Positions 4,610-9,308 of a DNA stretch of 19,530 nt are shown piece by piece. The notes beneath the pieces are model-generated. The model made no database searches. It was not told the DNA's origin and saw nothing but the letters and a program-made list of their open reading frames with translations. Source of the DNA: Oligoflexia bacterium (GTDB taxonomy: Bacteria; Bdellovibrionota; UBA1018); the NCBI GenBank assembly GCA_043732485.1, contig JAYTHP010000021.1, positions 1 to 19,530 on the forward strand. Reading direction: 5' to 3'. How positions within the stretch are numbered: position 1 is the first letter of the stretch; every line of letters begins with the position of its first letter. The position numbers and the translations under genes were made by a program.

Positions 4610-6625
4610 ATGAGTTTTAAGCATCGACTGCAAACGCGTCAGAAAGCGGCGGTCTCAAGAGGTTGCCAGCGAATCTGCGGTCTCACAAAGGGACTGACGC
4701 TGATTGCAGCACTTTTTTTCAGTGCCCAGGCTTTTGCGGTTGAGGCCCATCATCCCCGCCTACAAGCGGCTTACCAAGAAGCCATTGATATTCTTGAAGG
4801 TCGCTCTGATTACTATTCCGACCTTTACCTCTACTTGATCGATCCTCAGGTTCCCGCGCAACAAAAAATGCAGTTTTACCTTGAGATTACCGGTCAAGCT
4901 GGGCTCCCGATTAGGCAACTCCGTGGACCAGAGCTCACCGAATACTTAGCCGATATTCAGTCGCGCGCGCTCCAGGGCACGATGAGTAAGCGGGCCTTAA
5001 TTGAGCTTTTACAGCCTCGCTCACCCGCACAGGCCCAAACCTCAGGGCATGATGTTTGGGCCCATCAGTATTGGGACATGCGGAGCCGGCTCAAGTTTAT
5101 GGAACACTTGGCCTCGCACCGAGTGAGCGAGGAGGGTTTCACGCTTTTGCAAAAAGCCCATAAAGCTTGTGAGCAGGCGTCTCAGCAAAACGCCTCTCAA
5201 GACGCGTTTTCGCAACACGCAGGCCTGCAACAGCAAGCGGCGTTCGGGCGGAGGCTCGAGATCGTCCAGTTTAAGGCCAATTTTCTCTTCATGTGCTTGA
5301 ATCATATTCTTAAAAATATTCAATGGCATGAAAAGAATGCGGAAAAAACTCTCTTTAAGCCTTTGAAGTCTTTGAGTCCCAAGTGCTTAAAGGCTGTCAA
5401 AGAGGCCTCGCGCAGTGCGCGTGAACTCAGCGGTTTTGGGGAAGTGGATGCCATCAGTGAAGCATTAGGCAAGCTTGAACCGGTGGTTGCTCCTGAATGG
5501 CGTGAGGGTGCAGGCAACTGGAGTTTTGTTGATCTTGGCGCGCTGGGTCCAACGGTTTACCCGGAGCTCAATAGAATTCAAGCGAAGTTTTTGCGATTTG
5601 CCAAGACGCTGGGTTGCTTAAAGTTTCGCACCGCTGCGCTGGGGGATCCGGCGCCACGTGAGCTTGAGGCCACCGTCGCGGTGATCGCTTCGCTTTTGAT
5701 CCTAGAGAAGGTTCAGCCCCTCTGGCAAGAGCTGACGATTGCGATTCTCGAAAGTTTGCCGCAAGCTCCTTCGCCGCCGACAACAGTGACAGCGACAACG
5801 ACGACTCCCGCCGCAAGCGGCGGCTTATCTTCTAAGCTATTTGCGGCGCGGCAGGCCAATCAGACAATGGCGCTTCGCTCCTTAATCATTTATAGCTCTC
5901 CGGTTTGGGATCAACTGAATGCCAGATTAAAACGCCTCAAAGGCGAGCTGGTCGCGCTTGAGAACGCGGCTGCTGCTCAAAACTCAGCCCGAGTGCTTCA
6001 CTCGCAGCAAGAATCGCCTCCCGCCAACACCCCCACCCTCACCCCCACGACCTCTTCTTCCCTCCAGTCCCCTTCCCCGTCGGTAGCCTCTTCGTTTACT
6101 CAGCCGGGTCATGCGGAGGCTGGTCAGGCGCAAGGGGGGGTGATGCAAGAGCAAGGCTACGGTTGGCAAAAGTCGCATCTGGATGCCTTGCGCTTGAGTG
6201 AGGCGGTGAGTGAGAAATACAAACTGGAGTTGCAGCGTTTCGCGCTCGAAGCTAAGCAGCAAGCCCTGCAAACAGGGTGTATGCCTCCGACGGAACAGGA
6301 GCTTAAGGTGCAAGTGCGGCTCACAGAGTTCTTTAAAGGATCGCAACACCGCAAGATGCTTGAGAAAATCTTCGATCGCGCGGAAAACGGTGCTTCCTTG
6401 CGCTTTGACGAGCTGGTGGCGTTTGTCAAAGGTCTGGGCGGTGAGGTGACGCAAAGGGGCGGCTCACACTGCACCTTGTCGTTTGATGGGCAAACCACCT
6501 TGCGCTCGGCCAAGGGCTATACTTTTCGGCCGCATGAGGGCGGTGAGATGACCGCCACGGTCAAGGGTTTTCGAAAGTTTTTAGAGCGGGCAGGGATTAG
6601 TCTGGCAAGCGCGGGTCGGGAGTAA
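4610..6625 (+). CDS. Putative exported protein with a C-terminal HicA-like RNase domain (paralog 1)
   Basis: 671 aa. Basic N-region then hydrophobic LTLIAALFFSAQAFA. The last ~90 aa (from 6347) read HRKMLEKIF...LRFDELVAFVKGLGGEV..RGGSH...FRPH...FRKFLERAGI, a HicA-family pattern recognised by eye. Confidence 0.8.
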   Translation: MSFKHRLQTRQKAAVSRGCQRICGLTKGLTLIAALFFSAQAFAVEAHHPRLQAAYQEAIDILEGRSDYYSDLYLYLIDPQVPAQQKMQFYLEITGQAGLPIRQLRGPELTEYLADIQSRALQGTMSKRALIELLQPRSPAQAQTSGHDVWAHQYWDMRSRLKFMEHLASHRVSEEGFTLLQKAHKACEQASQQNASQDAFSQHAGLQQQAAFGRRLEIVQFKANFLFMCLNHILKNIQWHEKNAEKTLFKPLKSLSPKCLKAVKEASRSARELSGFGEVDAISEALGKLEPVVAPEWREGAGNWSFVDLGALGPTVYPELNRIQAKFLRFAKTLGCLKFRTAALGDPAPRELEATVAVIASLLILEKVQPLWQELTIAILESLPQAPSPPTTVTATTTTPAASGGLSSKLFAARQANQTMALRSLIIYSSPVWDQLNARLKRLKGELVALENAAAAQNSARVLHSQQESPPANTPTLTPTTSSSLQSPSPSVASSFTQPGHAEAGQAQGGVMQEQGYGWQKSHLDALRLSEAVSEKYKLELQRFALEAKQQALQTGCMPPTEQELKVQVRLTEFFKGSQHRKMLEKIFDRAENGASLRFDELVAFVKGLGGEVTQRGGSHCTLSFDGQTTLRSAKGYTFRPHEGGEMTATVKGFRKFLERAGISLASAGRE

Positions 6626-6754
6626 GGCGGGGTGGTGTGGGCTCCCTGCAAACGGAGCAAACCTCACCTGAGGCTTGCAGGGAATCCTCAGGGGCTGGCG
6701 CTGAGGACGTTGACAACAACGAGATGAGGGTGAAGATGGACATGAAAGTGGGAC

Positions 6755-8929
6755 ATGGAGATGGATATGAAAACGGACAAGAAAATCAGCACGCAAAAGA
6801 ACAACTCAGGCCTCGCTAGTAGCGTCGTCGCCGTCGGCGGTCACACCACGAGAAAGAGTTGGAGACGCAACAAGGTCGCTTGTTGCAGCGACTTGCTGAC
6901 CCTCACCCTCCTGTGCTTAGGGGTCGGCCAAGGCGGGGTAGGCGGTCAGAGGGCTTTTGCGGGGCATCACGACGCGCCTGAGTTTCATCCCGACTTGGAA
7001 GGTGCCTACCAAGCGGCCTTTGACATTCTGGAAGGGCGGATGAACTACTACTCTGATTTGTATCTCTATTTCATCGATCCTCGGGAACCCATCAGTAAAA
7101 AGCTGCAGTTTTTTGTTGAAATCACCGGCCAAGAGGGTTTGTGGGGCAAGCCACTCAGTGAGCGAGAAAACGCTGCAAACCTTGCGGCCATTCAAACGCT
7201 GCAACTGAAAAAGGCCTCCAATCGGCGAGCGCTGATTGAGCTTTTGAATCCGCAATCGGAGGCTCAAGCCCAAGCCTCAGGCCACGACGTTTGGATGGAG
7301 CAGTACCGGGAGGTGCGCCAGAAGCTCAGGCTGATGGAAGAGTTGGCCGCCACGCGTCTTTTGAGTGCTGAGTTGAGTGCTGAGTTGAGTGCTGAATCCG
7401 ATTCTTCCGACTCTCATGCTGAGCGAACAGGGTCTGGCGGCTTGGCGGTCAGCAATTCGCTTGAAGCCGCACCGCAAGCTTCTGGCCTAACAGAGAGGCC
7501 AAAGGGTTGCAATGCGCGGCTTGAGAAGGTGCAAGCGAAGGCCAATTTTCTGCTCATGAGCCTGCATCGCTTTTTAAGGATTGGTCTGTGGAATGAGAAA
7601 ACGTCAGAAAAGCGGATCTTTGGTGCCGTTCGCCATTTAACTTCCCGCGAACTCAAGGCGGTAAAAGAGCAATCCCGAGAACAGCGCGAGCTGAGCGGTT
7701 TTGGGGAAGCAGAGACGCTGCTGGAAGCCATCCAGTTGCTTGAGCCGGTGGTGGCGCCTGCGTGGAGTGAAAAGTCAGGAAATTGGTGGTTTAGTGAGTT
7801 AGCCTTGGACGGCAGGGGGGTGGGTAGGGATGGGCAAGAGATACCGTCTTTCTACCCGGAGCACCGAGCTCTTCATGAAAAGGCGAAAAAGTTTTTCAAG
7901 ATTTTTGACAAATTAAAACTGCGCTACCTGGCGCTTGCGCATCTCGCTGATGGGTCACAATTAAAGCTGTTACACGCGTTGGAGTGTTTTGCCGAGATTG
8001 AGGCCGTCTGGGGGGAAATCTTTAAGCTGATTTTTCCGGAACTGTTTAGTCAATCCCCGGAGGGTCAGACTTTAGGCGCATCTGCTGAGGCGACTTCAGG
8101 TCCTGAGCAAGCGTCGTCTCGTCAGGCGTCGTCTAAAATGGCCGGCCTGCGCTGGTTCAATCTCATGATGGCGCGTCGCTCCTTGATCATTGACGCGGCC
8201 CCGACCTGGGACCTGCTCCTTGACAAGCTCAAGGCTGTGAACTGCGAAGCGGCAGCACTGGAAAGCGCTTTGAGTTTGCGACCACAAAAAAGTCCGGCTG
8301 CGATGTCTCAGTCGGGTCCAGACAAGCCTCCCGCTAGTGGTGTGATGCCAGTTGCTAGCGCGCTTCCTGTAAGTCCACCGGCTTGGCCCAAGGCGGGTCA
8401 TAGCGGGGTGGGTCACAACGACAACGTACGTCAGTCCTCAGGCCTCTTTGTGGAAGTCGAAGCCTCAGGCTGGCTCAAGTCCCCTCTTGACGGCTTGCGG
8501 GTGGGCGAGCAGGGGAGTGAGAAGTATCGAGCCGAGCTCAAGCGCCAGGCGGCGCTTGAAGCCAAATCGCAAGCCCCAGCAACTGAGCCACCTCCTCCCA
8601 CGGCAAAAGAACTGCACGTGCAAGCCCACTTGACGTCCTTTTTTAAAGGGGCCCAGCACCGTAAAATGCTTGAGAAGATTTTTGCTCGCGAGGAAAAGAG
8701 CTCCTCTTTGCGGTTCGATGAGCTGGTGTCGTTTGTCAGGAGTCTGGGCGGTGTTGTGACCCAAAAAGGGGGCTCTCACTGTATGATTCATTTTGACGGG
8801 CAAACCACCCCGCGCTCGGCCAGAGGGTATACCTTTCGTCCACATGAGGGCAGCGAGATGACCAGCGCCGTGCGGGGGTTTCGTGCGGTGCTGGAGCGCG
8901 CGGGGCTGAAGGCTAAGATGGGCTGGTGA
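6755..8929 (+). CDS. Putative exported protein with a C-terminal HicA-like RNase domain (paralog 2)
   Basis: 724 aa and colinear with paralog 1 (AY..A.DILEGR..YYSDLYLY, EITGQ, RELSGFGE, LEPVVAP.W, GNW, GGSH, RPHEG). Signal-like segment ends QRAFA. True start may be ATG 6767 (GGAG at 6757-6760). Confidence 0.8.
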   Translation: MEMDMKTDKKISTQKNNSGLASSVVAVGGHTTRKSWRRNKVACCSDLLTLTLLCLGVGQGGVGGQRAFAGHHDAPEFHPDLEGAYQAAFDILEGRMNYYSDLYLYFIDPREPISKKLQFFVEITGQEGLWGKPLSERENAANLAAIQTLQLKKASNRRALIELLNPQSEAQAQASGHDVWMEQYREVRQKLRLMEELAATRLLSAELSAELSAESDSSDSHAERTGSGGLAVSNSLEAAPQASGLTERPKGCNARLEKVQAKANFLLMSLHRFLRIGLWNEKTSEKRIFGAVRHLTSRELKAVKEQSREQRELSGFGEAETLLEAIQLLEPVVAPAWSEKSGNWWFSELALDGRGVGRDGQEIPSFYPEHRALHEKAKKFFKIFDKLKLRYLALAHLADGSQLKLLHALECFAEIEAVWGEIFKLIFPELFSQSPEGQTLGASAEATSGPEQASSRQASSKMAGLRWFNLMMARRSLIIDAAPTWDLLLDKLKAVNCEAAALESALSLRPQKSPAAMSQSGPDKPPASGVMPVASALPVSPPAWPKAGHSGVGHNDNVRQSSGLFVEVEASGWLKSPLDGLRVGEQGSEKYRAELKRQAALEAKSQAPATEPPPPTAKELHVQAHLTSFFKGAQHRKMLEKIFAREEKSSSLRFDELVSFVRSLGGVVTQKGGSHCMIHFDGQTTPRSARGYTFRPHEGSEMTSAVRGFRAVLERAGLKAKMGW
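7361..7396 (+). repeat. In-frame 12-bp tandem repeat, 3 copies (LSAE)
   Basis: TTGAGTGCTGAG TTGAGTGCTGAG TTGAGTGCTGAA, absent from paralog 1. Confidence 0.9.
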
Positions 8930-9308
8930 GGGTGTAGCGAGCGTGGAAAGAGGGGGAGGCGAAGGGTTAAAAGACGACTCTCAGGGATCCTCAGACGGGG
9001 AAAGTTTTTTTTCCCGGTGGCTCTTTTGAGTCTCGCAGCCAGCAACCCGTTGGTTTTTAATGCCGCTGCCAATGCCAAAGACGACGGGAGAAGCTTCTTC
9101 TGCCAGGTGAGGACCGTTTCTCTTTGCGGGGCGCAAGTGCTATAAAAAAAAACTGATCACTGAACTTTAAGCCCGCAGCTAACCGTTTGGCCATTGCCTT
9201 GCCAATCCGGCGCCTTCCCCGTTCCATGTTGAAAATGTGGTGCTAAAGCACCCCCCTGAGAGGGTGTGGGAGTCGAGTGGTAGACGCAACCTGAGGGATT
9301 TTTTTAGC

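Follow-up and report, generated by a model that had tools for sequence, protein, structure and literature searches.

The closest described relatives of the proteins treated here are the HicA toxins of HicAB toxin-antitoxin (TA) modules (Pfam PF07927), in particular a subclass of about 85 amino acids (aa) that has an extra N-terminal helix and the motifs GS[R/H] and HxPH. The closest precedent is that of BetaH and RHS polymorphic toxins, some of which also end in a HicA domain (Li et al. 2022, PMC9424270); the S8-PTS of Gram-positives combine an S8 peptidase, a BetaH toxin with interchangeable tips and an immunity gene. Gerdes 2024 lists 14 HicA contexts (10.1101/2023.12.08.570793, PMC10865869), and the portions of its text and Table S1 consulted describe no exported form. 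Dot/Icm and other host-directed effectors reuse TA and polymorphic-toxin domains without immunity genes (PMC3482391), and HicA is unmentioned in the consulted main text of that paper, of PMC9803151 and of PMC11696984, an atlas of L. pneumophila effectors; in PMC8067016 it appears just as a table row. Here we analysed two adjacent genes in a 19,530-nucleotide stretch of DNA (the window; contig JAYTHP010000021.1 of assembly GCA_043732485.1) from an Oligoflexia bacterium of the Bdellovibrionota, whose products, P0001 and P0002, each end in a HicA-type domain. Our preferred reading, to which we give a probability of roughly 60%, is that both are immunity-free RNase effectors from the ~85-aa HicA subclass that are delivered into eukaryotic, probably protist, cells.

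Open reading frames (ORFs) for two colinear paralogs were found (Table 1), with the layout that an earlier note on this DNA had read from its letters, in which a signal-like N-terminus is followed by a helical body, then by a linker and an ~85-aa C-terminal domain. The two proteins are 45% identical across 646 aa and 74% identical across the last ~92 aa, where the GGSH and RPH motifs of that note, and hence both histidines, are present in both paralogs. The Pfam HicA_toxin model matched P0001 with an E-value of 0.008 and P0002 with 0.044, both below its curated cut-off. We then ran a profile of four C-terminal domain sequences against 1.84 billion representative proteins (E<=0.001), which gave 94 matches: 48 do not exceed 150 aa, 37 have 350 aa or more, and 9 lie in between. 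Four EF-hand proteins, three of them among the 37, were dropped as false matches, and 34 of the 37 long matches end in a HicA-like domain; among the 48 small ones, the Pfam HicA model recognises 41 at E<=0.01, 25 of them above its cut-off. The domain profile matched a profile of 25 small HicAs at 99.6% (E 9e-24), a value that is partly circular as the same profile had found these proteins, and the small-HicA profile matched the solved HicA structures 9svk, 6g26 and 4c26 weakly (E 0.07-0.34). In an AlphaFold model of P0001, built with a 26-row alignment (mean predicted local distance difference test score (pLDDT) 61.9, predicted template modelling score 0.43), the domain spans about 100 aa (residues 561-670) at pLDDT 80-96 and consists of two extra helices followed by a helix-strand-strand-strand-helix order (H599-608, E612-615, E620-625, E634-639 and H648-660). 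The structure search used the full-length model, so the helical body filled the match lists and a HicA superposition was not obtained. The HicA-like domain of the earlier note is borne out by the profile match and the modelled topology. Judged by these comparisons, the domain derives from the ~85-aa HicA subclass, which it resembles in sequence profile, predicted topology, the serine and the second histidine. On the other hand, unlike the HicA of HicAB modules, it stands behind 400-600 aa, comes with a predicted signal peptide or a C-terminal tail, scores under the Pfam cut-off and has no linked HicB ORF; at 671 and 724 aa, P0001 and P0002 are not small monodomain proteins.

The histidine of the GSH motif had been taken as catalytic. 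It is present in both paralogs, but among 38 small ~85-aa HicA rows of the alignment, 4 have His and 25 have Arg at this position, whereas the later HxPH histidine is found in 38 of 38. The signal-bearing long rows hold the serine in 19/19, the first histidine in 18/19 and the second in 19/19, and the signal-less rows hold the first in 15/29 and the second in 26/29; many long forms carry insertions within the domain. In this alignment the invariant histidine is thus the RPH one, not the GSH one. According to a review, each characterised HicA has one essential histidine (PMC11594946), which in our reading of the alignment of the small-HicA profile with the solved structures would be that of GSH. 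Since the GSH position is usually Arg in the subclass and the HxPH histidine is invariant, the RPH histidine is a candidate catalytic residue as well. The HicA-type domain is under purifying selection, with a ratio of nonsynonymous to synonymous rates (dN/dS) of ~0.16 between the paralogs, where dS is near saturation, and of 0.19 between the family members of genomes G042 and G043, compared with 0.64 for the linker and 0.04 for a housekeeping neighbour.

The N-termini of both paralogs consist of a basic region, a hydrophobic stretch and AFA at residues 41-43 (P0001) or 67-69 (P0002), with best 11-residue hydropathy values of 2.31 and 2.52; that of P0002 is atypical in its long n-region and glycine-rich c-region. 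Ahead of a conserved Arg, hydropathy is 1.98-3.23 in 15 of the 16 signal-group rows (1.53 in the remaining row) and at most 1.65 in 23/23 signal-less rows. The signal-like N-terminus ending in AFA that had been claimed for both proteins is therefore positive by hydropathy and the AxA heuristic, as it is in 15/16 signal-group rows. The motif region that follows (aa 44-100 of P0001) is 61% identical between P0001 and P0002 and has the consensus I..R..Y/F...L..F...S..EK..F, which is common to the signal-less homologs.

The body is 40% identical between the paralogs (dN/dS ~0.3), and between G042 and G043 its dN/dS is 0.18. It was modelled as all-helical, less certainly than the HicA-type domain, and the linker as disordered; a single-sequence fold of P0001 was of low confidence (pLDDT 38). 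Foldseek with the full-length P0001 model returned zero matches at E<=0.001, no body had any Pfam match, and an SMC model matched 1 of 26 family members weakly (E 0.027). The VIA structural matches of the body were common helical bundles only (best Z 9.6, residues 304-459) and uninformative on function; likenesses to alpha-pore-forming toxins and Not5 in the structural list were given no weight, and PDB sequence matches of the query to EF-hand and coiled-coil proteins were set aside as noise. The body might serve in delivery, localisation or self-inhibition.

No credible antitoxin ORF was found upstream of, between or downstream of the paralogs, as the earlier note had observed, and a search of their whole genome (G000; assembly of 2.58 Mb, 89% complete) with two Pfam HicB models gave nothing above cut-off either; each model was applied to five of the genomes that carry the family (carriers). 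Likewise, none of 9 mapped homolog loci has a HicB-like or immunity neighbour, in contrast to 9 small HicAs that each adjoin a HicB-like ORF (judged by eye). We propose that HicB was not kept because the target is not kin.

Compared with the S8-PTS and RHS toxins, the proteins share a C-terminal HicA taken from TA systems behind an N-terminal module, and their predicted signal peptide is a further likeness (PMC9424270). The repurposing of a TA toxin fold suggested earlier is supported for the domain, but a secreted HicA as such has precedent. They differ from S8-PTS in their helical body, in having no adjacent peptidase or immunity gene, in a tip that was always HicA among the members found (body profiles, G000 and 9 loci), and in a context that points to eukaryotes. 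With Gerdes classes 13 and 14 they share a monocistronic arrangement and a long, largely helical N-terminus ahead of a C-terminal HicA, and class 14 likewise has no clear HicB; however, the class 13 rows consulted are 339-442 aa long and come from Actinobacteria, Planctomycetes, archaea and others, the class 14 rows are cyanobacterial coiled-coil proteins, and by eye none of the rows consulted for either class is from Bdellovibrionota or has the family motif. The effectors of PMC3482391 resemble them as toxin domains without an immunity gene, in host-associated bacteria, that are read as eukaryote-directed. An ascomycete 'Ipa protein' and HicA-bearing fungal clusters have ESM Atlas feature scores of 0.82-0.89 to P0001 and P0086, which are alignment-free and under the reliable range; in one cluster Pfam HicA is found in 26% of members. 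P0001 and P0086 both match one 539-aa ESM Atlas cluster of 85 members (0.90). A description of this HicA-tipped family was not found in the literature searched, which was mainly open-access.

The 34 long matches comprise 16 with a signal-like N-terminus, 3 apparently N-terminally cut members of the signal group, 9 signal-less proteins with the same motif, 2 partial ones and 4 with other N-termini. The latter (P0059, P0077, P0083 and P0071), together with P0023, P0065, P0072 and P0090, were left out of alignments and trees. P0059, P0077, P0083, P0023 and P0065 are proteins of 715-748 aa or fragments; they have a different N-terminus and a HicA-like domain with a long acidic insertion, and perhaps represent a further fusion type. 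Within the Bdellovibrionota family of G000, the fusion was found in 6 of 75 genomes and 5 of 48 genera, with 1-3 copies each. In a sample of 401 genomes of the phylum, 13 matched, namely the six family carriers, six with small HicAs and one false match, a GlmU-like gene in G388 (by eye), so that no long fusion was found in this sample outside the family. Signal-bearing members include P0003, from a genome of this family labelled Bdellovibrio sp., and proteins of an Oligoflexia metagenome-assembled genome (MAG) and of a MAG labelled Ca. Puniceispirillum sp. Word-based searches with P0001, whole or C-terminal, returned only P0001 itself, and a scan of named genomes with P0006 gave no match. Carriers have smaller genomes than the rest of the family (median 2.6 vs 3.6 Mb, completeness-corrected). 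A tree of 90 rows separates long and small forms with 2-3 changes; a single clade of all long fusions was not rejected (approximately unbiased test, p-AU 0.80), and neither was a signal-bearing clade (0.74). In several cases a copy is broken up into two frames, is truncated or lacks its N-terminus (L005/L030 and L020/L028 in G021; L018/L023 and L016 in G055; L071 in G442; L054 in G441), which suggests family turnover or assembly errors. In G055 there is also a HicA-tailed member (L024:4715-8502) that is divergent and has no GSH histidine; the two genes that enclose it are signal-peptide paralogs and belong to no known family.

Signal-less homologs are found in Gammaproteobacteria. In the order of genome G418, which includes eight genomes of 0.3-0.4 Mb, 15 of 41 genomes matched, 13 of them with long signal-less frames of 343-772 aa, up to five copies of the long form being present in G442; in a MAG labelled Francisellaceae, the genes around one signal-less member are housekeeping genes. 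In a class sample of 401 genomes, with three candidates scored per genome, 49 matched, and long forms were confined to the two query genomes and a 279-aa frame in G731. With HicA removed, the signal-bearing and signal-less bodies matched at 79.5% in a profile-profile comparison (E 1.5e-5 over 79 columns; reversed control E 0.85). Many signal-less members have a C-terminal tail beyond the HicA domain, and DotI, a marker of Dot/Icm, occurs in 32 of the 41 genomes of the order, including 12 of the 13 fusion carriers; the signal-less forms probably use Dot/Icm.

In the Bdellovibrionota, F-box-like matches occurred in 11 of the 75 family genomes, that is, in 6/6 carriers and 5/69 non-carriers, with 0/14 in controls, and at 8/8 loci read, from 5 carriers, a signal-like N-terminus precedes the F-box. 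F-boxes work via eukaryotic SCF ligases. The co-occurrence with signal-peptide F-box proteins therefore favours a eukaryotic target over bacterial prey or competitors, and the delivered effector from a TA toxin fold, for which prey, host or competitor had all been considered, is thereby supported and narrowed to a eukaryotic host. The effector reading gains further from homologs that retain the predicted signal peptide without a neighbouring HicB, and from the signal-less homologs in Dot/Icm-bearing genomes. Among the genes next to the homologs are some for signal-peptide proteins of the MYND-SET, RING, ankyrin and kinase types and one for an F-box-LRR protein.

The signal-peptide F-box proteins of G000 (C141:36894-38375, C96:31534-34023 and C233:5311-7518) have long basic or low-complexity n-regions that resemble those of both paralogs. 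In G042 and G043, signal-peptide RING and MYND-SET genes lie directly 3' of the HicA fusion (L026:2046-5695 and L025:2561-3328), and their number differs between these close genomes. Five family genomes without the fusion (G005, G084, G087, G053 and G054) are rich in ankyrin, RING or F-box proteins and are possibly eukaryote-associated Bdellovibrionota. ATP/ADP translocase, ankyrin and RING were tried as markers of carriers and gave no clean separation.

The coordinates of the features are collected in Table 1. The paralogs are flanked by an amidohydrolase gene and a pyruvate phosphate dikinase gene, and tblastn and profile searches of the assembly found no third copy. Depth over the region is even, with zero differences, in contigs from two runs that are possibly the source of the assembly, and short exact pieces of both genes are present in a run of a second study. 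The DNA runs carry sediment and glacier labels, which were given no weight as to lifestyle. The sequence has GGAG 6 nucleotides ahead of the ATG at 6767, where translation of P0002 may start. Ahead of this gene, positions 6720-6770 hold short purine-rich repeats, several ATGs and three possible starts, and a 60-aa low-complexity ORF (6637-6819), probably no gene, overlaps the start region. Counts of promoters and terminators in the region are at chance level.

Table 1. Features of the two HicA-tailed genes and their surroundings, in positions of the window
Feature	Position	Strand	Remarks
Paralog 1 (P0001), 671 aa	4610..6625	+	signal-like N-terminus, helical body, linker, HicA-type domain
Predicted Sec signal peptide, paralog 1, aa 1-43	4610..4738	+	ends AFA; heuristic; family motif begins directly after
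Mature N-terminal helical motif, paralog 1, aa 44-100	4739..4909	+	conserved
Helical body, paralog 1, aa 101-467	4910..6010	+	AlphaFold model; no specific fold match
S/P/T-rich disordered linker, paralog 1, aa 468-534	6011..6211	+	pLDDT <50
HicA-type domain, paralog 1, aa 562-660	6293..6589	+	GGSH 6458-6469, RPH 6527-6535
Paralog 2 (P0002), 724 aa	6755..8929	+	layout as paralog 1; possible start 6767
Predicted long signal peptide, paralog 2, aa 1-69	6755..6961	+	ends AFA; atypical; heuristic
HicA-type domain, paralog 2, about aa 617-718	8603..8908	+	GGSH 8768-8779, RPH 8837-8845
Terminator-like hairpin and T run, 3' of paralog 2	8988..9001	+	such sites in the region no more than chance

We suggest the following course of events. 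The family would have been built once, by fusion of an ~85-aa-type HicA toxin behind a helical body. In the Bdellovibrionota form, the Sec signal would bring the protein to the periplasm, and exit from the cell would plausibly use a type II system or occur during residence in the host; four secretins were found in each of five carriers tested, and in G000 the order of genes reveals a type II secretion operon as well as type IV pilus and Tad genes. The protein would then reach the cytosol of a eukaryote, probably a protist, where the HicA domain would cut or bind host RNA and so lower host translation or defence. The gammaproteobacterial version, with its C-terminal tail and no signal peptide, would probably be delivered by Dot/Icm. 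Export would keep a signal-bearing RNase away from the RNA of its producer, and to this extent the self-protection proposed in the earlier note fits. However, it fails for the signal-less forms: these would be cytoplasmic until translocated, so export alone cannot explain self-protection, and they would need another safeguard, such as self-inhibition by the body, activation in the host or a eukaryote-specific substrate.

Several observations weigh against delivery into eukaryotic cells as outlined. Only carriers G000 and G020 passed the F-box cut-off, the matches in the others being weak, and the Fisher p of 2e-6 for the association is overstated as the carriers are related; the fusion is missing from five relatives that are rich in F-box or RING proteins. 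A RING model was positive in 3 of 6 carriers and had no match in G000, ankyrins occur in 53 of 75 family genomes, with 28 matches in G000 and 0 in carrier G021, and none of the 6 carriers has an ATP/ADP translocase, so that an obligate intracellular life is not supported. DotI, VipB and the VirB4 family had no match in the 5 carriers tested and hence supply no machine that would carry the protein from the periplasm into the cytosol of the host; in the gammaproteobacterial order DotI is also found in 20 of 28 non-carriers and does not discriminate. The signal peptides were judged by a heuristic, hydropathy and AxA. The first histidine is retained in only 15 of the 29 signal-less rows, and G042 and G043 have one HicB each (PF05534 and PF15919, respectively), on another contig than the fusion. 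The tree has 98 columns and low support, and we claim no direction of transfer from it.

The loss of the GSH histidine in 14 of 29 signal-less rows and the insertions in many long forms raise the question of whether the domain is catalytic at all. It could be a dsRBD-like module that binds RNA or ribosomes in the host while the helical body carries the activity; the body is constrained like the HicA domain between G042 and G043 (0.18 vs 0.19), and such a role would account for the absence of an antitoxin in cytoplasmic forms. However, small HicAs beside HicB-like ORFs vary at this position too (His 4/38) and keep the second histidine, which the long forms also keep (19/19 and 26/29), and we regard a non-catalytic role as unlikely. 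The origin of the proteins in a phylum of bacterial predators, in a genome with type II, type IV pilus and Tad genes, might instead suggest an antibacterial RNase secreted against prey or competitors in the manner of HicA-tipped polymorphic toxins. S8-PTS and RHS toxins do bear HicA tips (PMC9424270), and every HicA substrate known to date is a bacterial RNA (PMC11594946). Yet no immunity gene lies beside any examined homolog, the long fusions are absent outside the family of G000 in the phylum sample, and the association is with F-box proteins and Dot/Icm-bearing genomes; moreover, the tip does not vary in the way of polymorphic toxins, since in G000 the profiles of the N-terminus and the body found HicA-family genes only. 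An antibacterial function therefore appears quite unlikely.

Cytoplasmic, signal-less forms without HicB would also be expected of a fused, self-inhibited TA or anti-phage protein that acts in its producer and whose body serves as cis-antitoxin and sensor, as has been proposed for HicA fusion classes 11-14 (10.1101/2023.12.08.570793). We consider this improbable, as the signal peptides of one whole group would take the RNase out of the cytoplasm, PADLOC gave no match for 6/6 queries, 50,697 phage records contained no match, and the neighbours are housekeeping or effector-like and not defence genes. The combination of signal peptide and nuclease domain would furthermore fit a periplasmic or extracellular RNase that scavenges nucleotides for uptake, and smaller genomes may rely on salvage, but this very improbable explanation accounts neither for the conservation of the 400-aa body and the existence of signal-less homologs nor for rapid divergence, duplication and the link with F-box proteins.

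We thus return to eukaryote-directed RNase effectors as the preferred reading. The HicA-tipped family is real and conserved, and it probably consists of immunity-free effectors aimed at eukaryotes, in two versions that differ in export. More tentatively, and at somewhat less than even odds, we envisage a eukaryote-directed HicA RNase effector with a conserved helical carrier that moved between unrelated host-associated bacteria with its export signal swapped, and that marks a sub-lineage of Bdellovibrionota which has given up feeding on bacteria and now attacks or inhabits eukaryotic cells by means of a set of Sec-signal effectors (F-box, RING, SET and HicA); the fungal HicA-tailed proteins may be related. 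If the preferred reading is true, the family would add a new context to the 14 catalogued for HicA, the first eukaryote-directed one in the literature searched. Its small, testable domain would allow one to ask how a TA RNase stays harmless without an antitoxin and which eukaryotic RNA is cut, and a single effector family would show two modes of export. It would also be evidence, at the level of genomes, for interaction between some Bdellovibrionota and eukaryotic cells, and would bear on the route from predator to protist symbiont or pathogen.

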